DNA from: Vicinamibacterales bacterium
Lineage (GTDB): Bacteria > Acidobacteriota > Vicinamibacteria > Vicinamibacterales > UBA2999
Reading direction: 5' to 3'
DNA: 45,048 nt
NCBI GenBank assembly: GCA_044238535.1
Contig: JBIIDF010000002.1
Span: 1 to 45,048 of the forward strand
In this document: piece by piece, positions 1 through 29,198 of the stretch
Position numbering within the stretch: position 1 is the first letter of the stretch
Layout: the number at the start of each line of letters is the position of its first letter
The notes under the pieces: model-generated
What the model was told of the DNA's origin: nothing
What the model saw: the letters and a program-made list of their open reading frames with translations, nothing else
Database searches by the model: none
Translations under genes and position numbers: made by a program

Positions 1-1
1 G

Positions 2-472
2 CTGGTCGTGCTCGAGGCGCAGGCGAACGGCTGCGTCCCGGTGGTGACGCGATTGCCGGGGATCACCGACGTCGCCGTGGACGAGCAGGTCACGGGTTGG
101 CTGACCGCTCCAGGCAGGATCGACGAGTGTGTTGATGCCATCAGCGCCCTGCTGGATCCCGAGGTCTGGCAGCGGCAGAGCATGGCAGCCATGGCCCGTA
201 CTGCGCAGCGCTTTTCGCTGTCGGCCATGGGGCAGCGATACGAGTCGCTCGCAGCGGCACTGGCCCGTGGCGAGCACCCGATGTCCCGCCCCTACAATCA
301 ATCCGGGTCGCTGGACGATGTGCCGTTGAACTGGCAGGACCATCTGCCGGCGATGGTCCTGCGGTGTCTGCCGATCAAGACGGTGCGCGAGCTACGACGC
401 CGGAAGAACCGAGCGGTCCGAGCCTTCCGGCGCCGGACGTTGTTCACGCGCGTGCCGCCGCCCACACAGTAA
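2..472 (+). CDS. Glycosyltransferase family 4 (GT-B fold), C-terminal part; 5' end lies outside the window
   Basis: The frame is open to the window edge. The translation LVVLEAQANGCVPVVTRLPGI... is the Glycos_transf_1 donor-binding region. It is a clear paralog of the ORFs at 1460..2686 and 6457..7638, including the same C-terminal tail (RGEHP...W..HLP). Confidence 0.8.
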   Translation: MVVLEAQANGCVPVVTRLPGITDVAVDEQVTGWLTAPGRIDECVDAISALLDPEVWQRQSMAAMARTAQRFSLSAMGQRYESLAAALARGEHPMSRPYNQSGSLDDVPLNWQDHLPAMVLRCLPIKTVRELRRRKNRAVRAFRRRTLFTRVPPPTQ

Positions 473-505
473 GGAACCGAGCGATTCGCTGCTTCGGCCG
501 ATCGG

Positions 506-1429
506 ATGCCCCCGCCTACCTTCCTCATTCTTGGCGCCCAGAAATGCGGCACCGACGCCCTGTATCACGCGTTGCGACGGCACCCGGACATCGGGATGAG
601 CCCGAACAAGGAGCCGTTCTTCTTCATCATGGACGGCCGGCTGCCCGACTACCGGATCCCCGGGCCGCGGTACGCCAACCGGCTGGTATCTGACTGGGAC
701 AGTTATCTGCGGCTCTTTGCCGGTTTCGAGGGCAAGCGGGCGATTGGCGAGGCATCTGCGATCTATCTCAGCAGCTATTTTCCTGAGAAGACCGCAGCAC
801 GTATCCGCGAACGGATTCCGGACGCCCGACTCATTGCGCTGGTGCGCCAGCCGGCCGAACGGGCCTATTCTGCCTACCACTTCTACCGAGCCCGCGACTT
901 CGAACCCCTGTCAAGCTTCTCGGCAGCGCTTGCCGCCGAGCCTGCGCGGATTCAGGCGAACGACACGCCAGACTTCCGCCATCGAATGAACGGGTACTAC
1001 CATGCCAACCTGAAGCCGTACTACGAGCGCTTTCCACGGGAGCAGATTCAGGTGTGCCTCTTTGATGACTGGAATGCTGATCCGGCCGGCACATTGCGGA
1101 CCCTCTTCCGGTTTCTTGATGTCGACCCGAACGTGCCGGTCGAAGTAGACCGGCGGAATGTGACGTATCAGTATCGGAGCCAGCACCTGCATCGCGTACT
1201 CACCCGCCCGGGCCGACTCGGTACACGGTGGCATCGCCTGCTCCCCGCTGGAGTCCTGTCGTGGCTGGACCGCTGCAACCGGAGGCCGTTACCGCCCATG
1301 TCCACGGACCTGTGGCACATGCTGACTGAAGGCTACCGGGACGATATTCTCAAACTTCAGGACCTGATCGGCCGCGACCTGTCTCACTGGCTGACGCGCA
1401 AGCATTCCGGATCAACACGGGGCGTTTGA
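506..1429 (+). CDS. PAPS-dependent sulfotransferase (Sulfotransfer_1/3-like)
   Basis: The N-terminal FLILGAQKCGTDAL matches the 5'-phosphosulfate-binding loop (G-x-x-K-x-G-T). LVRQPAERAYSAYHF matches the 3'-phosphate-binding R-x-P-x-x-R-x-x-S-x-Y motif. ATG start lies 34 nt after the upstream stop. Confidence 0.8.
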   Translation: MPPPTFLILGAQKCGTDALYHALRRHPDIGMSPNKEPFFFIMDGRLPDYRIPGPRYANRLVSDWDSYLRLFAGFEGKRAIGEASAIYLSSYFPEKTAARIRERIPDARLIALVRQPAERAYSAYHFYRARDFEPLSSFSAALAAEPARIQANDTPDFRHRMNGYYHANLKPYYERFPREQIQVCLFDDWNADPAGTLRTLFRFLDVDPNVPVEVDRRNVTYQYRSQHLHRVLTRPGRLGTRWHRLLPAGVLSWLDRCNRRPLPPMSTDLWHMLTEGYRDDILKLQDLIGRDLSHWLTRKHSGSTRGV

Positions 1430-1459
1430 GTCGGGCGCACTGGCACGCCAGTCACACAC

Positions 1460-2686
1460 ATGAATATCGCGATTTATCTCAACAAGGTGCAACCACGCGA
1501 CGGCACAAGCCACTTTGCGGTTGGACTCGGGGACATGCTCATGCGGTCGGGACACGAGCTCACGCTGGTGGCGGGCATGAGGTCGCAGCCTGACGAACTG
1601 GCGCACCTTCCCCCTGGGATGACCTACGTGCATACGCGGCCAGGCCGCTGGGACGGGATGGCCCGGGACTTGTGGAGGGTGGAGCGCCTGTTCCGACAGC
1701 GCCAGTTCGATGTGGTGTTCGTGTGTCTCGGCGTTCCGCCCCGCCACCTGGCGCACGTCCTCTATCGCCTGCCCGATGCGACCGCGGTCGTACCGGTCGT
1801 CGGCACGGATCGGCTGTTTGCCTACGACCCGCTCGTACGCAGTGCCCCTGTGTGGAACATGGCGGTCGCAGAGAGCCCTCGTCTCCTGTCTGAACTCCAC
1901 CAGCGGATCCCTGGCAGCACGGCACAGGTGCTGACCACCGGCGTACCCCATCCGACCGACGCTGACCTGTCGAGACGCCTGCCGCATGGCACGCCCCTGC
2001 GGCTGCTCTTTGTCGGTCGTCTGGCTGGACGTAAGAACGTGCTGATGCTCCCGGACATTCTGGCCGGGTGCCTCCATCGCAGCGTCGATGTGACGCTCAC
2101 TGTCTGCGGCCATGGTCCCGACCGGGTGCCGCTCGAAGAGGCGTGCCTGGCGAGAGGTGTGTCGCATCTGGTCGAGTTTCGCGAAGTACCCGATCAGACA
2201 GGGCTCTACGCGACCTATCGACAACATCACATCCTGCTGCTGACCTCGAGCTATGGGGAAGGTCTCGGCCTCGTCCTGCTGGAGGCCCAGGCCAATGGCT
2301 GCGTGCCCGTGGCATCACGACTCTCCGGCGTCTTTGATTTCACGATCCAGGACGGCGTGACCGGCCTCCTGGCGGAGATCAAGCGCCCGGAGGATTTTGC
2401 AGAACAGGTGGCTACGCTGACCGGCCCTGACCGCTGGCACCAGTTGAGCGAGGCCGGGGTGGTCCGGACCCGTGAGTGTTTCACCTTCGACGCGATGGCA
2501 CGGGACTACCTCACGCTGCTGGCCGAGCTCCACCGCGGCGAACATCCCCTGCGCCAGCCGCGGTCAACAGTGGCACGGCCTCCGCTGCCGTGGACGGCCT
2601 ATCTGCCTCCACCCGTCCTGGAACGATACACGCGGCGCTTCCCTGGGTGGCAGCCTGCCGCCGCGTCCGATCCGGATCCCGAATGA
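1460..2686 (+). CDS. Glycosyltransferase family 4
   Basis: Carries GEGLGLVLLEAQANGCVPVASRLSGV (GT4 E-x7-E region). The 408 aa length is typical of GT-B enzymes. Paralog of 6457..7638 along its whole length. Confidence 0.85.
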   Translation: MNIAIYLNKVQPRDGTSHFAVGLGDMLMRSGHELTLVAGMRSQPDELAHLPPGMTYVHTRPGRWDGMARDLWRVERLFRQRQFDVVFVCLGVPPRHLAHVLYRLPDATAVVPVVGTDRLFAYDPLVRSAPVWNMAVAESPRLLSELHQRIPGSTAQVLTTGVPHPTDADLSRRLPHGTPLRLLFVGRLAGRKNVLMLPDILAGCLHRSVDVTLTVCGHGPDRVPLEEACLARGVSHLVEFREVPDQTGLYATYRQHHILLLTSSYGEGLGLVLLEAQANGCVPVASRLSGVFDFTIQDGVTGLLAEIKRPEDFAEQVATLTGPDRWHQLSEAGVVRTRECFTFDAMARDYLTLLAELHRGEHPLRQPRSTVARPPLPWTAYLPPPVLERYTRRFPGWQPAAASDPDPE

Positions 2687-4368
2687 TTCGGCGCCTCCAC
2701 CGGCGATGCCGGCGCCTGTCCTACGACTATCGCGTCTGGTCTGACTGGCTCTCAACGCAAGCGTTGGATGATGACTGGCGTGGTAGGCCCGACGGGACAG
2801 GACGACCCCTGATTTCGGCCAGCCTGTCGGTGTCGGCATCAAGGCCTCGTCATCTACGGAGGGCGGTTGCGTCCGTGCTGGCCCAGCGTTATCCGCACTG
2901 GACCCTGCACATCCGTGTCGACCCAACGGCGTCGTCCGAGGTACTCGCGATGGTGTCAGACATCGCGAGGCGGGACAGGCGGGTGACGGTCGCCCTCGAC
3001 CACACGCCGTCGACGACCTCCGTGTCGTCTGCGGATCGGGCACCTGAGACATTCCATGTCTGGCTGCATCCGGACGACACGTTCGCCGCAGACGCCTTCG
3101 GTCATGTGGCGACGACGGTGCGCACGCACCCCGATGTGCAAGTGCTCTACGGGAACGAGGACTCGCTGGGACCATGGGGCCGGCGGACACGACCACAGTT
3201 CAAGTCTGCCTGGAGTCCGCACCGACTGCGAAGTTATAACTTTATCGGACGGCCATGGTTCATCCGCGCCGACCTGTACAGCCGGCTGGAGGTGCCCGCC
3301 ACCGACCGAGAGCGCTGTGTCGACTACGGCCTCCTGCTGCAGGCCACCGAGCATGTGCCGCCCGGAGCCATTCAGCACATCCGGCGGGTGCTGTATCACA
3401 GGGGACACGACACGCACACCCGAGAGACCGACGCCAGACAGCACCACGACGTGGCCACGCGGTCACGGCACGCGGTGGTCTCGCACCTGCAGCGCTGCGG
3501 CATCGATGCCACGGTCGAGTCGATTCCGGGTTGGACCGGGTTCAATCGCATCACGTATGCGATGCCGACGAAGCCGCTGGTGAGTGTGATCATTCCCACC
3601 CGTGACAAGCTGCCGCTGCTGGACCGTTGTGTCACCGGTCTGCTGCAGCGAACGAATTATCCGGCCACGGAAGTGATCATCCTGGATAACGGCAGTCGTG
3701 AACCCGCCACGCATGCCTATCTGGCGGCGCTGGCGGGCCAGCCGCGGGTCCAGGTGCTGCGCGTCGACGCGCCGTTCAACTTCTCGGCACTCTGCAATCG
3801 CGGCGCGCGTGCGGCCAGCGGACACGTGCTCTGCTTCCTCAACAACGACATGGAGATCACGACGCCGCAGTGGCTCGAGGAACTGGTTGGCCTGGCGATG
3901 CAGCCGGAGGTCGGAGCCGTCGCACCCTTGCTCCGCTATCCCGATGGTCGGATTCAGCATCTGGGCATTCGAGTCGACCCGCCGTGGCCCCGGCTCATCG
4001 GCGACGGCTGGCGCGAACCTCTGACGCAGCGCGATGCGGCGCGGATGCACGCTGTGCACAACGTGGCCGCTGTCACTGGCGGCTGCCTGGTCACGCGGAG
4101 AGACGTGTTCGTCGAAGTGGGAGGATTCGATGAGGCCCTGCCGGTGGCGCACAATGACGTCGATTTTTGCCTGTCTGTCCGCAGAGCCGGGCGCTGGGTG
4201 GTGGTGACCCCATTCACCGAACTCAGCCACGAACTCTTCGTGTCGAGACGCGAGATGCCGAAGGCGGCTCGTCGGCGCGACTGGGAGGACGGCCTCCGCT
4301 ACCTGGCTGACAAGTGGCGTGACCAGTGGGGCCGCGATCCGTTTGAGGACGATGACGGCACGCGCTGA
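2683..4368 (+). CDS. Two-domain glycosyltransferase family 2 (tandem GT-A modules)
   Basis: The C-terminal module has the canonical VSVIIPTRDKLPLLDRCVTGLL...VIILDNGS and FLNNDME motifs. The N-terminal module is GT2-like but diverged (ISASLSVSASRPRHLRRAVASVLAQ..., LHPDDTF). I chose the ATG at 2683, which overlaps the upstream TGA (ATGA), rather than the track start at 2476, which overlaps the upstream gene by 211 nt. Confidence 0.8.
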   Translation: MIRRLHRRCRRLSYDYRVWSDWLSTQALDDDWRGRPDGTGRPLISASLSVSASRPRHLRRAVASVLAQRYPHWTLHIRVDPTASSEVLAMVSDIARRDRRVTVALDHTPSTTSVSSADRAPETFHVWLHPDDTFAADAFGHVATTVRTHPDVQVLYGNEDSLGPWGRRTRPQFKSAWSPHRLRSYNFIGRPWFIRADLYSRLEVPATDRERCVDYGLLLQATEHVPPGAIQHIRRVLYHRGHDTHTRETDARQHHDVATRSRHAVVSHLQRCGIDATVESIPGWTGFNRITYAMPTKPLVSVIIPTRDKLPLLDRCVTGLLQRTNYPATEVIILDNGSREPATHAYLAALAGQPRVQVLRVDAPFNFSALCNRGARAASGHVLCFLNNDMEITTPQWLEELVGLAMQPEVGAVAPLLRYPDGRIQHLGIRVDPPWPRLIGDGWREPLTQRDAARMHAVHNVAAVTGGCLVTRRDVFVEVGGFDEALPVAHNDVDFCLSVRRAGRWVVVTPFTELSHELFVSRREMPKAARRRDWEDGLRYLADKWRDQWGRDPFEDDDGTR

Positions 4369-4407: not shown

Positions 4408-6441
4408 TCAGTGAACGGGGCCGCAGTCACGCCGGATGTCACTGAACATGTCACGAATGACGTTGCCGAGCACGCGTGTGGCGCCGGCCGGGCTGATGTG
4501 CGAGCTGTCGATGTACCACGACTCGCCGGGACGTCCGACGCTCGAGAGGCCATCGGGACCGAAAAAGGGTTCCGCGAGGTCGACCACTCGCACGTGGTCG
4601 CCAGCCAGGTGCGCGAAGACGGCATCTACCTGTGCCTGCCGCGCGCTGTGTGTGGCGCGGCTGACACCACGGAGATTGATGGGGCGACGAAACAGGTGTG
4701 CCTCAATGACGCGGCGGCGCCACGGGAACGGTTGCGTCGGTATCTGCGCGAGGATCCACAGCGTCGCTCCCGACCGCACGGCCTCGTCCCGCACGGCTTC
4801 CAGTCCGGCCCGCAGGAGTTCGGCGTTCGAGAGTGCCGGTGATGTGGGGGCATCGATCGGCGCGAGAGCACGTCCGGGATTGAACCACATCCCCGCAAGC
4901 ACCACATGCCGCGGGCGGTGCGTGCGCATCCAGGTCAGTACGGCCTCGGTCCAGTTCGCCATCTCCCGGGGTCCCAACGCCCCAGCGGCTCCGCGATAAC
5001 GGGTGTCCCACACGCCGAGCAGGGGCAGCGTCCCTGGGCGAAGCGCCGCAGCACCACTGATCCCGAAGTGCCGCGCTGTTGAGTCGACGAGCCCGCTGAT
5101 GGCAACGCCGTGACTGTCGCCCCACAGCAGAAAGCACGGCGTGACGGACAGTCCGTGTTGACCGACCGCCGGCAAGTGCCAGGTCCCGTCGCCTGCAGGA
5201 CGGATAGGGGCACGAAATTTGGGATTCCAGGTCGATGTCCTCGCGAAGGCCAGCAGGTGTGGTGAAAATCGTCCGGGCCATCCTCCCGAGGACCATATCG
5301 CGCCTGCGGCACACGTCACCACACCGCAGGCCGCTGCTCCTACGGCCACTACCGCGAGTGCCGTCGGCCCCCGGTCAGAGACTCGTGAGCGACGGAACGG
5401 CTGTTCGACCCACTTCCACGAGATCACCGCCAGCACGATGCTGACGAACACCGCCGCCGCCGTATATGCCAGGGAGGGGTTGGGGCCGACGACGTAGCGC
5501 AGACAGGCGAGGACGGGCCAGTGCCACAGATACAGCGAATACGAAACGCGACCTACTCCGACGAGCGGGGCAACGGCCAGCAGGCGTGTGACCGGTGGCT
5601 CTTCCACGCCGTATGAGTGTCCTGCCGCAAGCAGCAGGGCCGTGCCGAGGCACGGCAGCAATGCCGCGGCGGCGGGAAACGTCGTGGCGCGGTCATACAA
5701 ACCGCATGGCACGATGATCAAGAGGAACGCGACGATGACGACCGCGTTCAGACGACCGCGATGCTGAGGCAGGGGAACCGGCGTCAAGGCCATCAGGGCT
5801 CCCAGCAGCAGCTCCCAGGCCCGAAACGGCAGCAGGTAGAACACCGCCTCCGGGCGACTGGCAATCAGCCCCTGGCTGGCCACATACGACACCAACGCGG
5901 TCGCCGCCACAGCAGCCGCACGGTGCCGGCGGTCGAGCGACCCTGTCAGCGACAGCAGGAGTGGCCAGAGCACATAGAACTGCTCTTCGATACCGAGCGA
6001 CCACATGTGCAGCAGGGGACGCAGGTCAGACGCCGCCTCGAAGTACCGGTCGACGCCTCGAAACCAGTAGCGCACATTGGCGAGCATGGCCGTGGATGCG
6101 CCGGCATCCACGGCAACGATCGCGTAGTCCGCTGGCAGCATCAGGAACCCACCAGCCAGCAGCACCGCGGTCGTCATCAGTAGCGCCGCAGGCCAGATGC
6201 GGCGGATTCGTCGCTCCCAGAAATGCAGCAGCGAGAAGCACCCGGCGTCCAGATCTCTGGTCAACTGGGAGGTCATCAAAAATCCCGAGATGACGAAGAA
6301 CACGTCCACGCCGACGTAGCCGCCCGGCACGCCCCATCCCGCATGAAAGAGCACCACGGCCAGCACGGCTACCCCTCGAAGACCATCGATATCGGCTCGA
6401 TAGTTCAAGGGGGAATGCCCGGCCTGCATCGGCATCGTCAC
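4408..6441 (-). CDS. Fused acyltransferase-3 / SGNH-domain O-acyltransferase (OafA/YrhL-like)
   Basis: The N-terminus YRADIDGLRGVAVLAVVLFHAG is the Acyl_transf_3 signature, followed by about 10 hydrophobic segments. A soluble C-terminal domain of about 280 aa (LLWGDSHG...) fits an SGNH fold. Confidence 0.8.
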   Translation of the reverse strand: MTMPMQAGHSPLNYRADIDGLRGVAVLAVVLFHAGWGVPGGYVGVDVFFVISGFLMTSQLTRDLDAGCFSLLHFWERRIRRIWPAALLMTTAVLLAGGFLMLPADYAIVAVDAGASTAMLANVRYWFRGVDRYFEAASDLRPLLHMWSLGIEEQFYVLWPLLLSLTGSLDRRHRAAAVAATALVSYVASQGLIASRPEAVFYLLPFRAWELLLGALMALTPVPLPQHRGRLNAVVIVAFLLIIVPCGLYDRATTFPAAAALLPCLGTALLLAAGHSYGVEEPPVTRLLAVAPLVGVGRVSYSLYLWHWPVLACLRYVVGPNPSLAYTAAAVFVSIVLAVISWKWVEQPFRRSRVSDRGPTALAVVAVGAAACGVVTCAAGAIWSSGGWPGRFSPHLLAFARTSTWNPKFRAPIRPAGDGTWHLPAVGQHGLSVTPCFLLWGDSHGVAISGLVDSTARHFGISGAAALRPGTLPLLGVWDTRYRGAAGALGPREMANWTEAVLTWMRTHRPRHVVLAGMWFNPGRALAPIDAPTSPALSNAELLRAGLEAVRDEAVRSGATLWILAQIPTQPFPWRRRVIEAHLFRRPINLRGVSRATHSARQAQVDAVFAHLAGDHVRVVDLAEPFFGPDGLSSVGRPGESWYIDSSHISPAGATRVLGNVIRDMFSDIRRDCGPVH

Positions 6442-6456
6442 GGTGTCATGCCCTCG

Positions 6457-7638
6457 TCAGCGCGACAGTCGCGCCATGTGTCGGCGCAGCGCGGGAGGCA
6501 CGTGTGCCTTCCACCCCAACCTGGGGCGCGGCATCGTCCGGCGGAGCGCGGGCGCGGGCCAATGACCGTCCTCGATCTCTTCGAGCAGCGTGGCCAACTG
6601 AGCAGCCATCACCTCCCGCGAGAACATGCGGCGTGTCCGCGCAATCCCTGCAGCACTGAGCGCGGCCCGTTGCCCGGCGTCGGCCAAGGCGACGACCTGT
6701 TCAGCAAACGCCGCAGCGTCACCCTCGGGTGCCAGCAGTCCTGACACTCCCTCTTCGATGGCATAGTCAGAGATCCCGGGCAGCCTCGTCGCCACCGGCA
6801 CACAGCCATGTGCCTGCGCTTCGAGAAGCACGAGGCCCAGACCTTCGCCCTGTCCAGCCGTCCAGAGCAGACCGTGATGCTGCCGCAGAGCGCGGTAGAG
6901 TTCCTTCTGCGTCGGGATCGACCGAAACGCGAGGCGGTGCCACACCCCGGCGTCTCTTGCCATCGTTTCAAGCGGCCCACGGTCGGGTCCCTCGCCGACA
7001 ACCGTGAGCGTCACCTCGATGCCTCGGCGGTGGCACTCGGCGATGATCGGTGGCATCGCGAGCACGTTCTTGCGACCGAACAGGCGGCCCACAGACAGCA
7101 GCCGCAGAGGTGCCCCTGGGGGTGTCAGGTTCGCCGCATCCTTCAACGCGGGCTGGTCGATAGCGAGGGTCAGCAGTCGAACAGGCCTGCACGGAACACG
7201 CCGCTCCATTTCGCGCTGCAATCCGGGGCTAATCGTCAACGCTATATTCCACAGACTCGAGGTCCGCACAGCTGGTTCGTAGACGTGCTCACGGTCTCCC
7301 AGGATCACGGGCACCAGTGCCGTCGTGTCAGGCAGCCATCGATAGGCCTGCTCGAGCCCGGGAATCGGCAGACCGGTCAACACCAGCAGCACATCAAACT
7401 GCTGGGTCACAAAGATGCGCCCAATCCGTCGGATGAGCGCAGCGTCGCTCTCCCAGCGCTGTTGGCCCATGTGGAGAAACGTCCACCGGCGGCCGGACGA
7501 CTCGGCGGCATCCCTGGCCGGCACCGGTGACAGGACCGTGACATCATGGCCCGCATCCATCAGCGTCTCCGCCAGTACGAATGCCGTCGTACTGTTGCCG
7601 TCGGTCTGGACGGCACGAACACAGATGCCGACCTTCAT
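6457..7638 (-). CDS. Glycosyltransferase family 4
   Basis: Carries GEGLGLVLLEAQAHGCVPVATRLPGI and is a paralog of 1460..2686. The ATG at 7638 (MKVGICV...) overlaps the TGA of the upstream sulfotransferase gene (ATGA). The track extension to 7776 is rejected. Confidence 0.85.
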   Translation of the reverse strand: MKVGICVRAVQTDGNSTTAFVLAETLMDAGHDVTVLSPVPARDAAESSGRRWTFLHMGQQRWESDAALIRRIGRIFVTQQFDVLLVLTGLPIPGLEQAYRWLPDTTALVPVILGDREHVYEPAVRTSSLWNIALTISPGLQREMERRVPCRPVRLLTLAIDQPALKDAANLTPPGAPLRLLSVGRLFGRKNVLAMPPIIAECHRRGIEVTLTVVGEGPDRGPLETMARDAGVWHRLAFRSIPTQKELYRALRQHHGLLWTAGQGEGLGLVLLEAQAHGCVPVATRLPGISDYAIEEGVSGLLAPEGDAAAFAEQVVALADAGQRAALSAAGIARTRRMFSREVMAAQLATLLEEIEDGHWPAPALRRTMPRPRLGWKAHVPPALRRHMARLSR

Positions 7639-8627
7639 CGGAGCACCTTCGCGAGGGCGGATGGTGCCAACCGGCGCAGGGGCTGAAGCACGACGTGCAG
7701 GGGCCGGATGGTGGCATACCGCACGTGAGCGCCAATGCTGTAGGTTCGTCTGGGTCTCGCCTGAAATCGGCCCCACTGCTCACGAAACCGATCCAGCGCG
7801 AAGGCATAGAGTTCCTGGTCGTGTGCGGTCAGTTCGTGCAGTTGAGCCAGGAGCGCGGCCGGCAGCCGCTCCCGATACTGGGACGCCGTCCTGCCGCGGC
7901 CAGGGTTGGCGTTGAGCCTCGGCAGATGCGCCGGCACGGGAATGCCGAGGAGGTCGCTCACCATCAGCACCGATTCGCGATAATGCTCAGTTGTACCGAC
8001 GACATCGATCTCGGACAGCCATCGCCGAGCGTTGGCCAGCAACTGCGAGGCGTCGCCGACATCCATCAGTGGCGGTAATGGATACGGGCGGAGGACGCTG
8101 CGGCCGCTGGTGGCGTCGGCGCTGCCCTTGAAGAGCGGGGCATAGTCTTCCATCACGCCGAGTGTGCGAATCTGGCTGTCGCAGGCATGCGCGAATGCCT
8201 CGCGGTCCACACAATCCTCCAGCGGCGCGTTGACGATCGGCGCGACCGCGGCGAGATATTCCTGCGTGAACGTGTGGGGAATCTGGCGGACAGTCCGCTG
8301 CAGGTAGATCATCTGCGACACGGCCCGCTCCACCGGTTCACGGACCATCGTGATCGTCAGCAAATCGGCGCGACCGGTCATCTCAAGCAGACGGCGCCCC
8401 TGATGAAACGCATGAAAAAACCGGAAGGTACGAAACCGCTCCAGCGTCATCGTGCGCATCACGGGCGGATTCAGCCGCACGCGGTCCCAGGGTAGATAGG
8501 CACTTTCCATGAGACGCCCGAGCGAAATTCCACCGGTTTTCGGGATATGGATGAAGTAGGCCGGCGGCGGCTCGAACGTCCATGTCCTGGCGTCACGGCC
8601 GGGATGCGGTTGGAAACCTCCTGCCAT
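7635..8627 (-). CDS. Sulfotransferase family 2-like (HIPKTGG type)
   Basis: YFIHIPKTGGISLGRL is the Sulfotransfer_2-type PAPS 5'-PSB loop. MVREPVERAVSQMIY is the 3'-PB motif. The ATG at 8627 is preceded by GAGGA 7 nt upstream, and that element overlaps the stop of the upstream gene. The alternative start at 8666 lacks this. Confidence 0.75.
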   Translation of the reverse strand: MAGGFQPHPGRDARTWTFEPPPAYFIHIPKTGGISLGRLMESAYLPWDRVRLNPPVMRTMTLERFRTFRFFHAFHQGRRLLEMTGRADLLTITMVREPVERAVSQMIYLQRTVRQIPHTFTQEYLAAVAPIVNAPLEDCVDREAFAHACDSQIRTLGVMEDYAPLFKGSADATSGRSVLRPYPLPPLMDVGDASQLLANARRWLSEIDVVGTTEHYRESVLMVSDLLGIPVPAHLPRLNANPGRGRTASQYRERLPAALLAQLHELTAHDQELYAFALDRFREQWGRFQARPRRTYSIGAHVRYATIRPLHVVLQPLRRLAPSALAKVLR

Positions 8628-21557: not shown

Positions 21558-22508
21558 TCAGTCAGGGGGAAGGGGCGGCGGTGCGCCTGTCAGTTCCCGA
21601 TAGAACGCGAGGCACCACACACCGTTCCCGACCAGGCAGGCGGGGGACAGGGCCAGAAACCGTGCAAGGTATCCCCATGCACCGAGCAGGTTCCTGGCGA
21701 TGTGCGGCAGGATCAGGAGCGGCGCCATGAAAATGATCGGCGGGAATCGCAAGACCAGACGCGCGGACGGCGATTGAAGGTGCCGGTGACACTGGGCCGA
21801 CGCCCGGCCCATCCGGCGGTTATAGGAGAGGAACTCACGCCAGCCTTCTCGATTCCAGTGGCTCACGACAATTGTCGGGTCGTAGACCACGTCCAGTCCC
21901 ACTTCACGAATCGCATGGGAAAACAGCACATCTTCGGCGAGGGTGCGGTCAGGAAACCGGATGCGACCGAAGAGCGAGGCTCGACAGGCGAGATTACATC
22001 CCAGTAGAAACTGGTGTGCGCGCGTGAACGAACGCCCGGACGGAAAGTGATAGAGGAACTCCAGGAAGTACACACAACACCCGCTGAGGTTGCTGGGGTT
22101 CCGGATGCCAATGGCTCCACCCGCAGCACCCACCCGCGAATCCTGGACGTACGTCATCAACCTGTCGATCCAATCCCCCGGCACGGTACAGTCCTGGTCG
22201 ACGAAGAACAGGAATGTGCCGCGCGCGGCCCGAGCACCGAGGTTTCGGGCCTCACCCGCGGTTACCTGCGTGGCAGGCGACAGGAGTCTAACGTGGGGAA
22301 ACTGCCGACGAACAACGGCGTCGGTGCCATCGGCCGAGCTTTCAACCACGATGATTTCTGCGCGGCGCCCGTGGATCGCCCGTTCGACGGACTGGATGCA
22401 GTCGGGTATGGTGCGCCTGCCGTGATACGCCGGGATGATGACCGACACCTCCACCGTCGACATGTCAGTGTCGTCCGACGATGTGGGTGCAGGATGTGTC
22501 ATGGCCAT
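21558..22508 (-). CDS. Glycosyltransferase family 2 with C-terminal hydrophobic segments
   Basis: Carries VSVIIPAYHGRRTIPDCIQSVERAI, IIVVESSADGT and FFVDQDC (DxD). The C-terminal part is hydrophobic (IIFMAPLLILPHIARNLLGAWGYLARFLAL). Confidence 0.8.
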   Translation of the reverse strand: MAMTHPAPTSSDDTDMSTVEVSVIIPAYHGRRTIPDCIQSVERAIHGRRAEIIVVESSADGTDAVVRRQFPHVRLLSPATQVTAGEARNLGARAARGTFLFFVDQDCTVPGDWIDRLMTYVQDSRVGAAGGAIGIRNPSNLSGCCVYFLEFLYHFPSGRSFTRAHQFLLGCNLACRASLFGRIRFPDRTLAEDVLFSHAIREVGLDVVYDPTIVVSHWNREGWREFLSYNRRMGRASAQCHRHLQSPSARLVLRFPPIIFMAPLLILPHIARNLLGAWGYLARFLALSPACLVGNGVWCLAFYRELTGAPPPLPPD

Positions 22509-22791: not shown

Positions 22792-24537
22792 ATGTCCATC
22801 GTCCGGCGAATCTGGTCGCTTCTGCTGCCCCGGCAACGTGAGAGCGCCGTCCTGCTGTTCGCCGCCGTGCTGGTCGCCACACTGCTTGAGACGGTCAGTA
22901 TCGGTCTCGTCGTTCCTGCGCTCGCATTCCTGACACGGGACATGAGCGCGACCTCTCCACACATGACCAGTTGGCTCACCTGGCTCGGCAATCCCGCACC
23001 CAACCGCCTGACACTCCTGGTGCTGGTCGGCATTCTGATGGTCTATGCCGCAAGAGCCGTGTTCCTCCTGTGTAAGGAGTACTGGCACGCAACATTCACA
23101 TCGGCCATTCAGGCGAGTACGAGCCGTCGGCTGTTTGCCCTCTACCTTGCGCAGCCCTGGACGTTCCACTTGCAGCGGCACTCGGCCACCCTGATGCGAA
23201 CCATCAACGAGTCTCAGGAGTTCGCCAGCCTCTGCGGGATCCTGTTCTCAGCGACCTCCGAAAGCCTCGTGCTGGTCACGCTTCTTGGTCTGCTGCTGTG
23301 GTACGAGCCGATGGGCACCATCGTCATTGCCGGCATGCTCGGCGTTGCGGCCTGGTTGTTTCAGGCGATCGCACGACCGTACTCGCTGCGCTGGAACAAT
23401 GCCCGACGGCATCACTCGAGGATGGTGATTCAGCACGTGCAGCAGGGGATCGGTGGTGCCAAGGATGTCATCATCCGCGGCTGCGAGCGTGAGTTTCTCG
23501 AGCGGTTCCGCCATCACACGGACGCGAGAGCCCGAATTGCGGCGTTGCAGTCGCTGATGTCGCGGGTTCCCCGTCTGTGGTTCGAGCTGCTCGCTGTCGC
23601 CGCACTGTTGCTGCTGACCTCCGTCCTGGTGTGGCAGGACGCCTCCTCCGAGCGTGTGCTGCCGATGCTGGGGCTGTTCGCCATGGTGGCGTTCCGTATG
23701 CTGCCGTCAGTGAACAACCTGACGAACTGGGCGATCCGGCTGCGAAGTGCGGAGAGCATGCTCGACCATCTGGCGAATGAACTGACGCTGGGTCACGACA
23801 GCTTGGGCGCACGGCACGGCCATCCGGTGATCTTCCGCGATGACCTTCTCATCGACGGTGTCTCCTACCGGTATCCGGGAGCCACTGAAGACGTACTGCA
23901 CGACGTACGCCTCCGCATTCCGCATGGCACGATGGCAGGCTTCGTGGGAAGCAGCGGTGCCGGCAAAAGCACGCTCATCGACGTGATCCTCGGCCTGCTC
24001 ACGCCGACGGCGGGCCGTGTGCTGGTCGACGGCCTGGACATTCAGGAGAATCTCCGCGGATGGCAGGACCGCATCGGATACGTCTCTCAGGCCATTTACC
24101 TGTGCGACGACTCCATTCGCAGGAACGTCGCATTCGGCGTGGCCGATGCCGACATCGACGATGGGGCCGTCCGGCGGGCACTGCAGGCGGCGCAACTCGA
24201 CCAGTTTGTCGACGGCCTTGCGGAGGGCATCGAGACGAATGTCGGCGAGAGGGGTGTCAGGCTGTCCGGTGGGCAACGGCAGCGGATCGGCATCGCCCGC
24301 GCGCTGTACCACGGTCCAGCGGTGCTCGTCCTTGACGAGGCGACCAGCGCGCTTGACACCGAAACTGAGGAAAGTGTCATGGCGGCCGTGAACGCCCTTC
24401 ACGGGACGAAGACCGTGATCATCGTCGCTCACCGTCTCACCACCGTGGCCAACTGCGATCGCCTCTATCGACTCGATCACGGGCGGATTGTGCAATCGGG
24501 TAACTACACCAATGTCGTCCCTTCGTCGGTGCGGTGA
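22792..24537 (+). CDS. Fused TMD-NBD ABC exporter (MsbA/PglK-type half transporter)
   Basis: The N-terminal six-helix-type hydrophobic domain is followed by Walker A GSSGAGKSTL, the signature LSGGQRQRIGIARAL, Walker B VLVLDEATSALD and an H-loop VAHRL. ATG at 22792; the track start at 22771 is a TTG. Confidence 0.85.
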   Translation: MSIVRRIWSLLLPRQRESAVLLFAAVLVATLLETVSIGLVVPALAFLTRDMSATSPHMTSWLTWLGNPAPNRLTLLVLVGILMVYAARAVFLLCKEYWHATFTSAIQASTSRRLFALYLAQPWTFHLQRHSATLMRTINESQEFASLCGILFSATSESLVLVTLLGLLLWYEPMGTIVIAGMLGVAAWLFQAIARPYSLRWNNARRHHSRMVIQHVQQGIGGAKDVIIRGCEREFLERFRHHTDARARIAALQSLMSRVPRLWFELLAVAALLLLTSVLVWQDASSERVLPMLGLFAMVAFRMLPSVNNLTNWAIRLRSAESMLDHLANELTLGHDSLGARHGHPVIFRDDLLIDGVSYRYPGATEDVLHDVRLRIPHGTMAGFVGSSGAGKSTLIDVILGLLTPTAGRVLVDGLDIQENLRGWQDRIGYVSQAIYLCDDSIRRNVAFGVADADIDDGAVRRALQAAQLDQFVDGLAEGIETNVGERGVRLSGGQRQRIGIARALYHGPAVLVLDEATSALDTETEESVMAAVNALHGTKTVIIVAHRLTTVANCDRLYRLDHGRIVQSGNYTNVVPSSVR

Positions 24538-24698: not shown

Positions 24699-25820
24699 AT
24701 GAACGAAGCCGTGGTGCAGGGGCCCGATCCGGAACGTCGCAGTGCCACGCCACGAATGGAACAGGGCGCGGCACGTGAGAATCCACTGCCTGAACCCTAC
24801 ACCCTCGACCTCACGGTCATCATGCCCACCGTGGACTTCGGAGACGATTTCACTCGGTCGGCACGCCGCGTGATCCAGTCGATCGCACGGTTTCCTGGCA
24901 CCGCGGAATTCATTGTCGTGCTCGATGGACCGGCGGTCATGCCTCCCACGTGGCTTGACTGTTCCAGTGTGACGACCCTGGCAACCGGAGCCCGGCGTGG
25001 CCCTGCCTACGCCCGCAATGATGCGGCGAAGACCGCGCGGGGCCGCGTCCTCGTCTTCGTCGATGCGGATGTGGAGTTGGCGCCCGACGTGCTTGAACGT
25101 GTCGTCGTGGCGTTTGGCGACGAGCCCGAGCTCGTGGGAGTGTTTGGCAGCTACGACGATGAACCGGCGGTGCCTGGCCTGGTCAGTCAGTTCCGCAACC
25201 TGCTGCACCATCACACGCACGTGTCCCATCGGGGGCGTGCGACGACGTTCTGGACGGGCTGTGGCGCCATGCGGACAGCACACTTCCTTGCCGCCGGTGG
25301 ATTCGACCCTTCATATTCCTGCCCGAGCGTCGAGGACATCGACCTCGGGACGCGGGTGACCGCAGCGGGTGGCCGAATCGTGATTGATCCCTCGCTGCAG
25401 TGCAAGCATCTCAAGCGATGGACACTGGGGTCGATGATTCACACCGACGTGTTTGGTCGCGCAGTCCCGTGGACCAGAATGCTCCTGAGCCGTCGGCAGT
25501 GGCCCGCAACGCTCGCCATCGACTGGAGGAGCCGGGTGAGCGGTCTGCTCGCCATGATGCTCGTCACCGCATTGATTGCGGCGCCATTCGCATCCCAATT
25601 TTTCGCCGCTGCCACGGGAGCCGGTCTCGCGCTGGTCATCTGCCAGCACAGCTTCTATCGGCTCTGCCTCAGGAAGCGTGGACTGCTGTTCGCCCTGGGG
25701 GCTGTTCCCCTGCACGTGATGTTCTTCGTCTATTCGTCGATCACCTTCGCAGTCGTGGTAGTCGCCGACGCCAGCGGCTCACCGGGGCGGCAGACGGAGA
25801 CCCTCAAGGAATCAGCGTGA
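24699..25820 (+). CDS. Membrane-anchored glycosyltransferase family 2 (polyprenyl-phosphate-sugar-synthase-like architecture)
   Basis: Carries LTVIMPTVDF..., FIVVLDG, VFVDADV (DxD) and PSVEDIDLG. Three to four C-terminal hydrophobic helices follow (LLAMMLVTALIAAPF..., LFALGAVPLHVMFFVYSSITFAVVVV). Confidence 0.75.
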   Translation: MNEAVVQGPDPERRSATPRMEQGAARENPLPEPYTLDLTVIMPTVDFGDDFTRSARRVIQSIARFPGTAEFIVVLDGPAVMPPTWLDCSSVTTLATGARRGPAYARNDAAKTARGRVLVFVDADVELAPDVLERVVVAFGDEPELVGVFGSYDDEPAVPGLVSQFRNLLHHHTHVSHRGRATTFWTGCGAMRTAHFLAAGGFDPSYSCPSVEDIDLGTRVTAAGGRIVIDPSLQCKHLKRWTLGSMIHTDVFGRAVPWTRMLLSRRQWPATLAIDWRSRVSGLLAMMLVTALIAAPFASQFFAAATGAGLALVICQHSFYRLCLRKRGLLFALGAVPLHVMFFVYSSITFAVVVVADASGSPGRQTETLKESA

Positions 25821-25837
25821 TACCCGGACGGCGGCGG

Positions 25838-27013
25838 ATGACCGGTGGACCGTCGTGGCTGGCAGCGGTGTTGGCCGTGGCGGCGCTGGGTACCTTCGCC
25901 ACGGGTTTGTGGCTGACGTGGGTTATCAATAACGACGTGGACATGCAGTCACGCGTTGCCGAGTATTCCGCATTTCGCGTCGGTGACTACCCCAACCGGA
26001 ACCTCGACGTTCCAAGGCACAACCGGGAATTGCTATGGTCGGTCTATCCGCCGTACGCGTTTCCGATGTTCGCCGTGTTCTTTGAACCTGGCGGTCTTCT
26101 CCAGGGGCGAATCCTGATCCTTGTCTTCACGATCGCGGCCGTCGTGCTGATGGGCATGTATGGCTACGACCGGCTGAGGCCGTTCGGTCAAGCATGGGCA
26201 GTAGTCGGTGCCCTCTCCGGCGCGGCTATCTCGAGCAACGGGACAACCATCGGCTGGGGACAGTTTTCCACGATGTGCACCGGTCTGCTCGTGCTGCAGT
26301 TGATGCTCATAGAACGCGGCAGACCAATCTCCGCAGGCGTGGCATGGGCCGGGGCCATGATCAAGCCGCAGATCGCCCTCGCGTCAGCGGCGCTGTTCAT
26401 CGCACACCGCACGGGGCGGGGCCTGGTGGTCGGTGTCACCGTGCTGGCGGCTCTGAGCGCCGCAGCGATCTGGTGGACCGACATCTCATTCAGGGCGGTC
26501 GCTGAACACTGGCTGTTCCGATGGCCGGTCGGATTTGCGCTGAGCTCGAAGGCACTCGGTCCCGCTCATATGGCCGACTGGCTGGGCTGGAATCAGCGCG
26601 TCGTGCATTTTGCCGCGCTCGGAGTGTTGGCAGTGAGCGTGGTCACGGCAGCTCGGCGCCTGCCGCGAGACCTCTTGCGACTGGACCTCCTGCCGGGGGC
26701 GGCGCTGTGTGCCGTGCTGGGCCGAGTACTGCTCTACCATCGCCACTACGACGATGTGATGCTTTTCCCGCTACTGATGGCCTGCCTGGCGCTCGCACTC
26801 ACCACGCCAACAGGGGCGAATGTCGCCATGGCCGTCTCCGTGGGTGTCACGCTCGTGGTCCCCATGCGTGTCCTGAGTTGGATCCCGTTCGCAGAGGTCA
26901 TCCTGCCAGCGATTTGGGTCATCGCTGCCCTCGTGGTCTGCCGTGACGCCTTCGCCGGTGCACGACGCCAGGTCAGCGACGTAGGCCGCGCCCGTCCGGG
27001 CGCGGCGTGCTGA
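25838..27013 (+). CDS. Polytopic membrane protein, GT-C fold / DUF2029 (GT87)-like glycosyltransferase
   Basis: Hydrophobic throughout (about 10 predicted helices). Its size and position directly after a membrane-anchored GT2 fit this call. The ATG at 25838 or the GTG at 25817 (GTGA overlap with the upstream stop) could be the start. The track ORF from 25400 is an out-of-frame overlap with the upstream gene. Confidence 0.6.
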   Translation: MTGGPSWLAAVLAVAALGTFATGLWLTWVINNDVDMQSRVAEYSAFRVGDYPNRNLDVPRHNRELLWSVYPPYAFPMFAVFFEPGGLLQGRILILVFTIAAVVLMGMYGYDRLRPFGQAWAVVGALSGAAISSNGTTIGWGQFSTMCTGLLVLQLMLIERGRPISAGVAWAGAMIKPQIALASAALFIAHRTGRGLVVGVTVLAALSAAAIWWTDISFRAVAEHWLFRWPVGFALSSKALGPAHMADWLGWNQRVVHFAALGVLAVSVVTAARRLPRDLLRLDLLPGAALCAVLGRVLLYHRHYDDVMLFPLLMACLALALTTPTGANVAMAVSVGVTLVVPMRVLSWIPFAEVILPAIWVIAALVVCRDAFAGARRQVSDVGRARPGAAC

Positions 27014-27016
27014 GCA

Positions 27017-27046
27017 GGCGGCGACAAGGCACGGGGTGACGCCGCC
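27017..27046. terminator. Inverted repeat GGCGGCG-N16-CGCCGCC filling the 34-nt gap between the convergent GT-C and Wzy_C-TPR genes
   Basis: Read directly. The overlapping alternative stem GTGAC/GTCAC lies at 27036..27051. No T-tract. Confidence 0.3.
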
Positions 27047-27047
27047 G

Positions 27048-29198
27048 TCACTGCTTCAGCACATCTTTTCCGGCGCGAATATCCGCGATCAGCCGCTTCC
27101 CCTGGCCCTGAAAGTAGGTGAACTCCGTCATGGCCTGCTCAATCACGGCGATGGCACCCGGCACGTCCTGATTCAGCAGGTGCGCCGTGGCCAGCGAGGT
27201 TCGAAGGGTGAGGTCCCGCGGATGTCTGGCGATCAGGTGCCGGAAGACAACGGGCAGCAGGCGCGTCCGCTTGTTGTCAATCATCAGGGCGACCAGCTGC
27301 GGGTCCGGGTCGTTGGGAAGGTTCTCGAGCAGATAGGCTTCGAAGGCGGCGGTGTCGTCTGCCGAGACCAGTGCGGTCAGATACGTCCGACGAGCACGCG
27401 GAAACTCCGGGTCGAGGTCGAACGCGTCTTTCGCAACCACCGCTGCTTCGGCGAATCGCTTCTGGCTGAGAAGATTCACCACGAGGTCGAGCATGGGCTC
27501 CTGTTTCCGCGGGGTCAGTTGGTGCGCTCTCACGAGGAGCGGGTAACCCTTCTCAAACTGGCCCACCGCCGTCAGGAACGTTCCGCCCTGATGAAAGCCC
27601 CGGGGATCGAGAGGCGAGTACGCGGTCTGCGCATCGATGGCCGTCTGCGCCAGGTGCAGAAATGCCTGCCGCATCTCGGGGTCCAGTGACGTCCGTATCA
27701 CCTTTCCCGCAAACTGAATCGCCTGCTCGCGGACTTCCTGGGAGCCGGTGCCAGGCATGGCAAGCGCCTGCTGATACAGCGCCAGATTCTTGCCGAGGCC
27801 ATCGCCCTGTGGCTGTGCCGCCTCCAGCACAAGTGCCCCGAGGCGGTAGGGAACGATGTTGAAGTAGTACAGACCAAGCGTCATCCCAATCATCACCACG
27901 GGCGCGATGACGAAATCACGGATGTGCCCCGGCACCGTGAATGCGGGGAAGGCATAGGCCGTGGCCACGCGGCTGTGCACAAACGCCAGCAGCGCGAAGA
28001 ACATGACGTAGCCCGGAATGGTGTCGAACAGGGTCAGGCTGTGCGTCCCGTAAGCCACGACGAGCCCGATCAGAACGGCTCGCTCATGCAGGTGGAATGG
28101 CCCGCGCCAAATGGCGAGGAGGGCCAGCACATACAGGGCGGCATACAGCAGGAACCCGAAGACCCCGGCCGCGACGAACCAGTCGAGAAACGCGTTGTGT
28201 GCCCGATCCCACCACGGTTCGTCAGCCCACAGTCTCGAGTCGTAGAAGCGGGCATAGACGTAGTTGAAACCGTCCTGCCCGTATCCGAGGACCGGCTTCT
28301 CGGCAATGCCCTGCAGTGCCATGGGCCACATGAAGCTGATGCGGGTATTCTGCAGTTTCGTGTTCACGACACGCCGCACCGTGGGGTTGTCTCTGGCGAA
28401 CGGCATGTCTTTGATGGCATAGAACGCAGGTCCCGACAGTACGACGATGGCGAGCATCGCCATCGCCAGGTAGCGGCCGGGGGTGCGGCGCTTTTCCTGC
28501 CAGGCGAAGATGGCAGCCGCCGCGACGACACCGACGATGAGTGCCAGCAACGTGCCGCGTGTGGCGGTCCTGAACAGGATGAAGAGGTTGAAGAGGGTGG
28601 TGACGCCATACAGCCACGACGCCCAGCGGCCTCCATACCGTGCGGCGATCAGATACACGGCAAAGCCGATGTTCACCAGCAGGTAGATGGCAAGTTGTCC
28701 GGAGTTACCCATCGTGGAGTCGACGCGGTCGGCGTCCTGATAAAAGGTGATGATCCCGAATGCCTGAAAGAGCCCGTACATCGACACGACCATGGATGTG
28801 GCGATGGAGGCGGTCATCCAGGCACACCAGAGCTGTGTCCCCATCACCGTCCCGGCCACCACGAAGAACATCCACAAATGGAGAATGGTGACGAAGCCCT
28901 CCATACGCTCGAAATTCGACCAGAAGCTCCTGTGGGGATTGACCCCGAACAGGTCCGCGACCAGCACGACCACGACGAAGGCGGCAGCGGTGACGGACAG
29001 GAGCGATATCTTCGGTCGGTAGCGCGGCTCACGAACCGCGAGCAGGACATAGCACGCTACGACGATGTCCACGAGCGAGCGGAAGTAGATGGCCTTCCCG
29101 GTGATGAACGGAAACAGCAGGGACTGGGCGATGATACCGGGCGTGAGCACGGTCAGGAAGAGTCCGGCAACGACTGCCCAGTACAGGGGATTGTTCAT
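27048..29198 (-). CDS. Wzy_C (O-antigen ligase/polymerase-like) polytopic membrane domain fused to C-terminal TPR repeats
   Basis: Wzy_C hallmarks are present: FRTATRGTLLALIVGVVAAA and DRAHNAFLDWFVAAGVFGFLLY. The N-terminus is LLFPFITGKAIYFRSLV. The last ~250 aa are helical repeats with TPR-like spacing (ALYQQALAM..., FLTAVGQFEKGYPLLVRAH..., RFAEAAVVAKDAF...). The ATG at 29198 (MNNPLYW) is preferred to 29486. Confidence 0.75.
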   Translation of the reverse strand: MNNPLYWAVVAGLFLTVLTPGIIAQSLLFPFITGKAIYFRSLVDIVVACYVLLAVREPRYRPKISLLSVTAAAFVVVVLVADLFGVNPHRSFWSNFERMEGFVTILHLWMFFVVAGTVMGTQLWCAWMTASIATSMVVSMYGLFQAFGIITFYQDADRVDSTMGNSGQLAIYLLVNIGFAVYLIAARYGGRWASWLYGVTTLFNLFILFRTATRGTLLALIVGVVAAAAIFAWQEKRRTPGRYLAMAMLAIVVLSGPAFYAIKDMPFARDNPTVRRVVNTKLQNTRISFMWPMALQGIAEKPVLGYGQDGFNYVYARFYDSRLWADEPWWDRAHNAFLDWFVAAGVFGFLLYAALYVLALLAIWRGPFHLHERAVLIGLVVAYGTHSLTLFDTIPGYVMFFALLAFVHSRVATAYAFPAFTVPGHIRDFVIAPVVMIGMTLGLYYFNIVPYRLGALVLEAAQPQGDGLGKNLALYQQALAMPGTGSQEVREQAIQFAGKVIRTSLDPEMRQAFLHLAQTAIDAQTAYSPLDPRGFHQGGTFLTAVGQFEKGYPLLVRAHQLTPRKQEPMLDLVVNLLSQKRFAEAAVVAKDAFDLDPEFPRARRTYLTALVSADDTAAFEAYLLENLPNDPDPQLVALMIDNKRTRLLPVVFRHLIARHPRDLTLRTSLATAHLLNQDVPGAIAVIEQAMTEFTYFQGQGKRLIADIRAGKDVLKQ

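Follow-up and report, generated by a model that had tools for sequence, protein, structure and literature searches.

The 45,048-bp stretch analyzed here, which makes up the whole of contig JBIIDF010000002.1 and which we call the window, carries in positions 1-29198 an island of 22 genes (g01 to g22) devoted to glycan assembly. We consider it reasonably probable that this island is the locus for assembly, decoration, and transfer of one complex surface glycoconjugate, or of a few, with surface proteins as the favored acceptor. The initial annotation, made on the same DNA, had described a decorated, probably sulfated heteroglycan that is built by a non-standard route. The dedicated glycan-assembly locus and its intact motifs hold up; the route claim does not, as no unusual route is needed. 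A PglK-like flippase (g19) combined with a WaaL-fold ligase (g22) follows the logic of the Helicobacter pylori Wzk-WaaL pathway and of the S-layer systems that use WsaB/WsfB.

A gene map of the window was drawn from the open reading frame (ORF) listing and third-position GC (GC3) bias, and candidate genes picked across the window were compared to Pfam and NCBIfam profiles. As the map shows, the 22 genes abut one another from position 1 to 29198/29486, in agreement with the earlier count of 22 consecutive genes, and because the largest non-coding gaps in this run are only 138-262 bp, no gene is hidden within it. Pfam identifies 13 glycosyltransferases (GTs), the number proposed at the outset, comprising seven GT4-type, four GT2, one WbsX, and one GT87-type GT-C protein; 13 GTs in 22 neighboring genes is far beyond chance. 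The profiles likewise bear out the MsbA/PglK-type ABC exporter and the Wzy_C protein with tetratricopeptide repeats (TPRs) that close the island.

The extent of 29 kb given initially proves too small. The left-hand continuation is known through the gene calls and precomputed Pfam matches of a 48,758-bp sister contig, which comes from another sample, encodes proteins identical to those of the window, and reaches 17.5 kb further left. The first gene of the window, g01 (1..472, plus strand), encodes the last 156 aa of a GT4 (Pfam Glycos_transf_1; 424 aa in full) truncated by the contig start, and is whole on sister contigs L001 and kkriGs3J. Leftward from it lie genes for a sulfotransferase (327 aa), a GT2+Methyltransf_24 protein (395 aa), a GT2 (307 aa), a sulfotransferase with faint matches (321 aa), and a 390-aa GT-B-like protein, followed by a GT2 (296 aa), two GT4s (428 and 407 aa), a Gly_transf_sug protein (242 aa), and a GT4 (475 aa), beyond which are four genes without any Pfam match. 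The sister contig thus adds ∼12 kb with 7 further GTs and 2 further sulfotransferases, and the extended island measures about 41 kb, with 32 genes, ∼20 GTs, and 4 sulfotransferases. The Pfam-less 390-aa gene was considered as a hidden membrane polymerase and rejected, as the protein is soluble and GT-B-like in appearance. A metagenome scan for the left-hand continuation returned solely a 76% relative.

The gene that most directly bears on the fate of the glycan is g22 (27048..29198, minus strand), a predicted WaaL-fold Wzy_C enzyme with 13 predicted transmembrane helices and a C-terminal TPR region (Wzy_C 2.2e-21, plus TPR). The match to Wzy_C (PF04932) reaches 76.6 bits against a cut-off of 31.7. 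Structures were modeled with AlphaFold2 (AF2), and structural neighbors were sought with Foldseek. The g22 model was built from 48 homologues and has a mean confidence (pLDDT) of 89.5. Foldseek matches its membrane portion to the WaaL structure 7TPG (prob 1.0, target TM-score 0.59) and its last ∼240 residues to a TPR superhelix of the OGT type. The model has twelve WaaL-like helices and a thirteenth hydrophobic helix (424-461), and the K/R-rich loops 57-65 and 235-243 fit the cytoplasmic side. Residues R214, R286, and H334 are invariant in the 48 homologues. The essential residues are R215/R288/H338 in Escherichia coli WaaL and R224/R298/H349 in PglL (PMC3643930), and the g22 residues appear, by position and numbering alone, to match this catalytic set. 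C-terminal TPR motifs have been reported for the S-layer O-oligosaccharyltransferase (O-OTase) WsfB and for PglL (PMC2943079).

The genomic contexts of g22 homologues point in the same direction. The family comprises more than 2,500 matches; beyond the cluster of the organism itself, members are full-length at ∼725 aa, and Patescibacteria are the source of many named members. We inspected five homologue loci (L011, L013, L014, L019, and L020), among which the closest homologues, at 44-55% identity, occur in low-GC (39-45%) Patescibacteria-type genomes. All five show a variable glycan cassette followed by the Wzy_C-TPR gene, MurB, and SecA, and four of them continue with AI-2E, Obg, and GatB. 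The cassette contains Wzm/Wzt with methyltransferases and GTs, or Wzx with GT9/GT4, or NeuB with CMP-sugar genes. Because the Wzy_C-TPR gene is fixed while the glycan genes and flippase type vary, these contexts favor a family that behaves as a glycan-promiscuous ligase or oligosaccharyltransferase (OTase), not as a repeat-unit polymerase. Patescibacteria are understood to lack lipopolysaccharide (LPS), and since many members are found there, ligation to lipid A-core cannot be what defines the function of the family. These homologues disfavor such ligation as the family-wide function, without settling the matter for the host's own copy. The GC3 of g22 is 0.79, and since this codon bias is host-like, any transfer of the gene would be old. 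The closest homologues, with their conserved gene order in Patescibacteria-type genomes, suggest an ancient horizontal transfer with conservation of the ligase/OTase role. A plasmid search with g22 gave no match.

The flipping step is assigned to g19 (22792..24537, plus strand), a fused half-size ABC exporter of the PglK/MsbA/HepA type (ABC_membrane + ABC_tran). Its residues 13-574 align to residues 4-561 of the Campylobacter lipid-linked-oligosaccharide flippase PglK (5C73) with 258 bits, and no MsbA structure is present among the 60 PDB matches listed, the weakest of which scores 188 bits. On the basis of this full-length likeness to PglK, we propose that g19 is the flippase for a lipid-linked glycan.

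Immediately downstream, g20 (24699..25820, plus strand) encodes a membrane-anchored GT2 (Pfam GT2) with C-terminal hydrophobic helices, which weakly matches the membrane GT2 of PDB 6YV7. Its stop overlaps by 4 bp the start of g21 (25817..27013, plus strand), which encodes a polytopic GT-C protein (GT87/DUF2029-like, 39.9 bits vs a cut-off of 25) with ∼9 hydrophobic segments. We propose that g20 makes the polyprenyl-phosphate sugar used by g21, and, by analogy with Gtr/Arn-type modules, the pair may constitute a periplasmic add-on glycosylation step.

Decoration of the glycan is indicated by enzymes of three kinds. Both sulfotransferases predicted at first to depend on 3'-phosphoadenosine 5'-phosphosulfate (PAPS) are upheld by the profiles and by the presence of both PAPS motifs. 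The product of g02 (506..1429, plus strand), ST1, exceeds the Sulfotransfer_1/_3 cut-offs of 22 and 27 bits (45.2 and 43.7 bits) and matches the bacterial sulfotransferase structure PDB 3RNL (E 3e-47) as well as heparan-sulfate N- and 3-O-sulfotransferases. Its 5'-PSB motif GAQKCGTDALY and 3'-PB motif RQPAERAYSAY align to GPQKTGTTALY and INPADRAYSWY of the N-sulfotransferase 1NST. The second, ST2, encoded by g07 (7635..8627, minus strand), passes the Sulfotransfer_2 cut-off narrowly (25.5 bits vs 22) and carries the diagnostic PAPS motifs HIPKTGGISL and MVREPVERAVSQ, which fit HIPKTGG and REPxxRxxS; the 3'-phosphate-binding motif lies in the stretch VREPVERAVSQ. Full-length relatives of ST1 at 32-34% are found on Salinibacter and S. 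meliloti plasmids, and Synechocystis plasmids also match, at <60% identity. The match to S. meliloti pSymB was dropped as a lead, as the record carries no annotation.

Two of the three proposed methyltransferases are recovered by Pfam as class-I S-adenosylmethionine (SAM) methyltransferases: g15 (18314..19300, plus strand; Methyltransf_25/11/12) and g16 (19338..20312, plus strand). The third, g08 (8638..9309, minus strand), encodes 223 aa of a family that is not recognized, with no Pfam match even at E<=5 and weak hints in the form of an Erm-like match (NCBIfam, E 0.015) and a PDB methyltransferase (E 0.9); its sequence contains an ETGTSFGD stretch, and it adjoins ST2 in the relatives L004 and L005 as well. 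The profile searches therefore leave the sulfotransferases and two methyltransferases in place and g08 unconfirmed. Finally, g05 (4408..6441, minus strand) is confirmed as a membrane-bound AT3-SGNH O-acyltransferase of OafA-like architecture (Acyl_transf_3 5.6e-36, SGNH 5.2e-28). That the product is sulfated, methylated, and acylated can be inferred on good grounds from the intact catalytic and cofactor motifs of these enzymes.

These components can be arranged into the following pathway. A phosphoglycosyltransferase encoded elsewhere would prime polyprenyl phosphate, on which the ∼20 cytoplasmic GT4, GT2, and other GTs would build a long heterosaccharide; the domains of these GTs are observed, and their order and substrates are presumed. 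Four PAPS sulfotransferases and two or more SAM methyltransferases, whose motifs are present and whose substrates are likewise presumed, would decorate the chain on the cytoplasmic side. The finished lipid-linked glycan would then be flipped by g19, given its full-length likeness to PglK. In the periplasm, to judge by the architecture of the proteins, g20/g21 would attach a sugar delivered on polyprenyl phosphate, O-acylation would fall to the AT3-SGNH enzyme, and g22 would finally transfer the glycan en bloc to an envelope acceptor.

As to that acceptor, we favor protein O-glycosylation by a WsfB-like O-OTase slightly over an LPS O-antigen, and place a free exopolysaccharide (EPS) or capsule third. 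The LPS alternative, which we judge unlikely while still a serious contender, takes the island as an H. pylori-type O-antigen locus in which g22 is the host's WaaL, ligating the glycan to lipid A-core, with the TPR domain scaffolding contact with Lpt or the outer membrane. Consistent with this, WaaL 7TPG is the sole catalytic-domain Foldseek match of g22, the Arg/Arg/His set is conserved, PglL_A is unmatched, and AT3-SGNH enzymes are known as O-antigen acetyltransferases; planctomycetes, moreover, are described as diderms with LPS in the part of PMC12673574 that cites Mahat 2016. Against it, the bulk of the g22 family and its nearest relatives reside in Patescibacteria-type genomes, understood to be without lipid A, WaaL proteins normally have no TPR domain, and the window scans found no core-oligosaccharide or lipid A genes near g22. 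A locus for a secreted or capsular sulfated EPS, with g22 as a Wzy-like polymerase or as the TPR part of an export scaffold and a product that is released rather than ligated, seems improbable to us. Such a reading could draw on the sulfotransferase-bearing sulfated EPS loci of cyanobacteria (xss, PMC8205485), on the putative sulfated-EPS cluster of Pontiella with its GT2/GT4, methyltransferase, and sulfotransferase genes (PMC7356697), on TPR domains as hallmarks of polysaccharide export scaffolds (in a statement cited within PMC2943079), and on the HepA-type ABC profile matched by g19. Yet g22 homologues adjoin Wzm/Wzt systems, which use no periplasmic polymerase, they remain constant while glycan cassettes vary, and some occur in a group understood to be without an outer membrane, where an outer-membrane export scaffold would have no role. 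The search for export genes also argues against an EPS locus. We inspected ∼62 kb for initiator, export, and supply genes, that is, the scanned genes of the window and the gene calls for the adjoining 17.5 kb on the left (Pfam models sought: PF01943, PF01061, PF02563, PF02706, PF02397, and PF00953), and found no Polysacc_synt/Wzx, ABC2_membrane/Wzm, Wzt, Poly_export/Wza, Wzz/Wzc, KpsD/E, or synthase-type export components. The initial annotation had reported no canonical initiation or export genes, and indeed no WbaP/WecA, Wzx, Wzm/Wzt, or Wza/Wzc was found; g19 and g22, however, which were on its own list, would make up a flip-and-ligate route of a characterized kind.

Several observations weigh against the proposed pathway with a protein acceptor. 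The same ∼62 kb contains no Bac_transf/WbaP or Glycos_transf_4/WecA initiator and no nucleotide-diphosphate (NDP)-sugar or PAPS-supply (cysDN/cysC) gene, and because of this the start on a carrier lipid is assumed; the upstream inspection for a phosphoglycosyltransferase and cysDN/cysC that had been suggested earlier found none in the gene list for the 17.5 kb to the left. In enterobacteria, WecA lies outside the O-antigen clusters, and since initiators encoded elsewhere are common, a locus without a phosphoglycosyltransferase is not telling. The NCBIfam scores of g19 are similar for three subfamilies and in each case below the cut-off (PglK NF050066, 287 vs 1000 bits; MsbA, 306 vs 602; HepA, 283 vs 725), which makes its placement in the PglK subfamily tentative. 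A PDB sequence search with g22 gave no solved Wzy_C-family (WaaL/PglL-type) relative, only TPR or chance matches at E>=0.02, and the periplasmic location of its TPR domain, on the catalytic side, is inferred from the 13 helices of the model and from K/R-rich loops that fit the cytoplasmic side. The PglL_A motif (PF15864), which separates PglL from WaaL (PMC3643930), is not matched by g22 (Pfam at E<=0.01 gave only Wzy_C and TPR); a Neisseria-type PglL was rejected for g22 on these grounds, and our claim is limited to an enzyme that may work like an O-OTase. With ∼20 GTs, the island might also serve more than one product, and the pathway as a whole rests on sequences and models.

The most specific version of the protein-acceptor reading is general protein O-glycosylation, in which a multiply sulfated, methylated, and acylated oligosaccharide would be placed onto surface proteins by an anciently transferred TPR Wzy_C OTase of a Patescibacteria-centered family. 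We regard this version as doubtful and put it forward tentatively. If true, it would give a function to a very large Wzy_C-TPR family (>2,500 matches) and would be, to our knowledge, the first bacterial pathway for a sulfated O-glycan on proteins. The family is uncharacterized, and its hypervariable-cassette contexts make the question of a ligase or O-OTase function tractable.

The remaining genes of the island encode mostly GTs, assigned with Pfam. The GT4 enzymes are encoded by g03 (1460..2686, plus strand), g06 (6457..7638, minus strand), g09 (9494..10783, plus strand), and g14 (17060..18292, minus strand), together with the GT4-type g12 (12906..14252, minus strand) and the C-terminal domain of the 881-aa g13 (14418..17063, plus strand). 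The N-terminal ∼660 aa of g13 (14418-16400) match nothing in Pfam or NCBIfam, even when thresholds are relaxed, and could represent a second, unclassified catalytic domain. The GT2 enzymes include g04 (2683..4368, plus strand), whose 561-aa product has a GT2 domain at the C-terminus and a weak GT2-like one at the N-terminus, g11 (11917..12909, minus strand), and g18 (21558..22508, minus strand), which has a hydrophobic C-terminus. The match of g17 (20359..21504, minus strand) to the WbsX family (PF14307) is very strong (418 bits, E 4.4e-125); we take this family to be grouped with TIM-barrel glycoside-hydrolase-like folds, which makes the GT label of g17 uncertain. All NCBIfam equivalog matches of the island genes are far under the cut-offs, and individual GTs cannot be assigned to characterized enzymes. 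Internal paralogy is evident in the pair g03/g06 (44% identity) and between g12 and the C-terminus of g13 (35%), a pattern that points to local duplication.

The gene g10 (10780..11970, plus strand) had been called a Pol-beta nucleotidyltransferase (NTase). This assignment is supported at the level of the predicted fold, and no profile or PDB sequence match was obtained. The AF2 model (pLDDT 94, from a 36-sequence alignment) has as its best structural neighbors aminoglycoside and lincosamide O-nucleotidyltransferases and MNT, with matches to AadA, AAD(9), ANT(4'), LinB, and MNT (prob 1.0, E 2e-3, TM 0.44), and the S-D-x-D motif is invariant (S42, D43, and D45). An ANT/LinB-like nucleotidyltransferase fold is followed in the model by a C-terminal helical domain, and the enzyme might nucleotidylate a sugar hydroxyl. 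The uncharacterized family to which it belongs has ∼57 proteins and no Pfam model, and occurs in Planctomycetaceae, Acidobacteria, and Gemmatimonadota; a homologue at 76% identity is annotated as Planctomycetaceae. In the window and L017, though not in L016, the gene is next to a GT4, and a constant membership of this family in glycan loci was rejected after inspection of homologue contexts.

All nine strand-switch coordinates reported earlier match ORF starts or ends. The initial annotation had set the alternation against the mostly co-directional order of characterized loci; comparison with the rest of the window speaks against reading it as a property of the island. Strand switches occur at 9 of the 21 adjacencies in the island (P(>=9/21) < 0.001 if the switch rate is <= 0.1), at 12 of 31 in the extended island, and at 7 of 14 among the unrelated genes at 29.5-45 kb. 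Because the last are affected as well, strand alternation is not specific to the island; it is unusual for O-antigen or capsular polysaccharide (CPS) loci and ordinary for this genome, a matter of general organization. Planctomycete genomes have little operon structure, with which the alternation is consistent. The convergent pairs g10/g11 and g13/g14 overlap at their 3' ends by 54 bp (11917-11970) and 4 bp (17060-17063), and between the candidate start codons of the divergent g14 and g15 there are at most ∼21 bp (18293-18313), which leaves no room for an intergenic promoter. The GC content is 63-69% across the window without a compositional break, and the possibility that the island is a mobile element was rejected, as it has no tRNA, long repeat, or GC shift. 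An Rfam scan gave no match.

The left-hand genes have their nearest genomic relatives in Planctomycetota metagenome-assembled genomes (MAGs), at 64-79% amino acid identity (a Lake Mendota Pirellulales bin, a Planctomycetaceae bin, and a bin labeled Kuenenia). Genes g01-g04 and g06-g08 are syntenic at this identity in other Planctomycetota MAGs, accompanied by extra sulfotransferases and a GDP-mannose dehydratase. In one relative, L005, a GDP-mannose 4,6-dehydratase gene occupies the corresponding place together with genes for two further sulfotransferases and an AT3, and an LPG_synthase_TM-type membrane protein (13866-14867 of L005) is found where the window has the AT3-SGNH gene (4408-6441). 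This is cassette exchange in an otherwise conserved frame, typical of surface-glycan loci.

To the right of the island, two ORFs, 29472-30323 and 32273-32950, encode small proteins with signal peptides that are beta-rich by eye and only faintly MipA-like (E 0.09-0.17), one of them ending in RRF; both may be small outer-membrane barrels. The former is divergent from g22, and a link to the glycan system is conceivable. It was considered as Wza and rejected, being a small signal-peptide protein with a MipA-like hint alone. A Wzc-like tyrosine kinase was similarly rejected for 31537-32232, which encodes a TraL/ParA-like P-loop ATPase (NCBIfam PRK13886, E 7e-15, far under the cut-off). Together with this gene, a catalase-related one (30496-31485; Pfam Catalase E 0.012, under the cut-off) lies directly right of the island. 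A second AT3-family acyltransferase (39420-40583; HGSNAT_cat/Acyl_transf_3, without SGNH) is located 10 kb outside the island amid unrelated metabolic genes. The 181-aa ORF at 35600-36145 has a flat codon-position GC (0.65/0.70/0.65) and an Arg/Ser/Pro-rich translation, and is probably not a real gene.

Planctomycetes have been treated in the literature only as degraders of sulfated polysaccharides; indeed, a 2025 review of the phylum mentions sulfatases and never sulfotransferases or glycosyltransferases. If the host is a planctomycete, as its relatives were read, the ∼41-kb locus with four sulfotransferases suggests that certain freshwater planctomycetes may produce such sulfated glycans on their surface as well, which would bear on the cell surface, aggregation, interactions with phages and grazers, and lake sulfur and carbon cycling. 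The practical value is modest for now, as the organism is uncultured and the work sequence-based.

A comparison with known systems places the island among several of them. In H. pylori, the Wzk (PglK-like)-WaaL route has been established experimentally (PMC2841628), and the enzymes of the LPS route also glycosylate adhesins and other proteins (PMC9553153). Like the route proposed for the island, the H. pylori pathway (WecA-GTs-Wzk-WaaL) combines cytoplasmic assembly on a carrier lipid, flipping by a fused PglK-type transporter instead of Wzx or Wzm/Wzt, and transfer by a Wzy_C-family enzyme, and its initiating enzyme is likewise absent from the locus. It differs in that its genes are scattered, its glycan is unsulfated, and its WaaL has no TPR domain, whereas the island clusters ∼20 GTs, 4 sulfotransferases, methyltransferases, a GT-C, and an AT3-SGNH enzyme together. 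The slg clusters for Gram-positive S-layer glycans (WsaB/WsfB; Geobacillus and Paenibacillus; PMC2943079) share with the island ABC-dependent export of a lipid-linked glycan, methyltransferases, and a Wzy_C transferase, and their layout of Wzm/Wzt, methyltransferases, and GTs beside a Wzy_C-TPR gene is mirrored by the g22 homologue loci in Patescibacteria-type genomes. In contrast to slg, the island has a fused PglK-type exporter instead of Wzm/Wzt, lacks rml genes and an initiator of the WsaP type, and adds predicted sulfation, in a host that was read as a diderm planctomycete; the likeness of g22 to WsfB is one by description.

Sulfated bacterial glycans, as the initial annotation held, are uncommon, but they are less rare than it implied, given the synechan, Vibrio, Cobetia, and Pontiella loci. 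The xss cluster for synechan in Synechocystis (PMC8205485) has sulfotransferases amid GT2/GT4 genes, as does the island. The Pontiella cluster (PVC superphylum), for a putative sulfated EPS that is GAG-like, does so too and brings these together with a methyltransferase, a GT2 of the polyprenyl-phosphate mannosyltransferase type, and the large membrane protein YfhO; it differs in its dehydratase and transaminase for sugar supply and in its one sulfotransferase as opposed to four. For xss, we presume export of the Wzx/Wzy and Wza/Wzc (OPX/PCP) type, none of which is found in the island. Neither xss nor the Pontiella cluster shares its gene order, and comparisons across the literature, plasmids, and MAGs turned up no characterized locus with the gene order of the island; in content, these two clusters resemble it most among published loci. 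Sulfotransferases also occur in the sulfated CPS loci of Vibrio and Cobetia (PMC11641403, PMC11766843), and prokaryotic glycan-locus sulfotransferases have been reported for Halobacterium. Among planctomycetes, the S-layer protein of Kuenenia is heavily O-glycosylated with methylated sugars (PMC5088730). Set beside these systems, the features of the island worth following are the scale of the locus, its four sulfotransferases, and its Patescibacteria-type TPR ligase.

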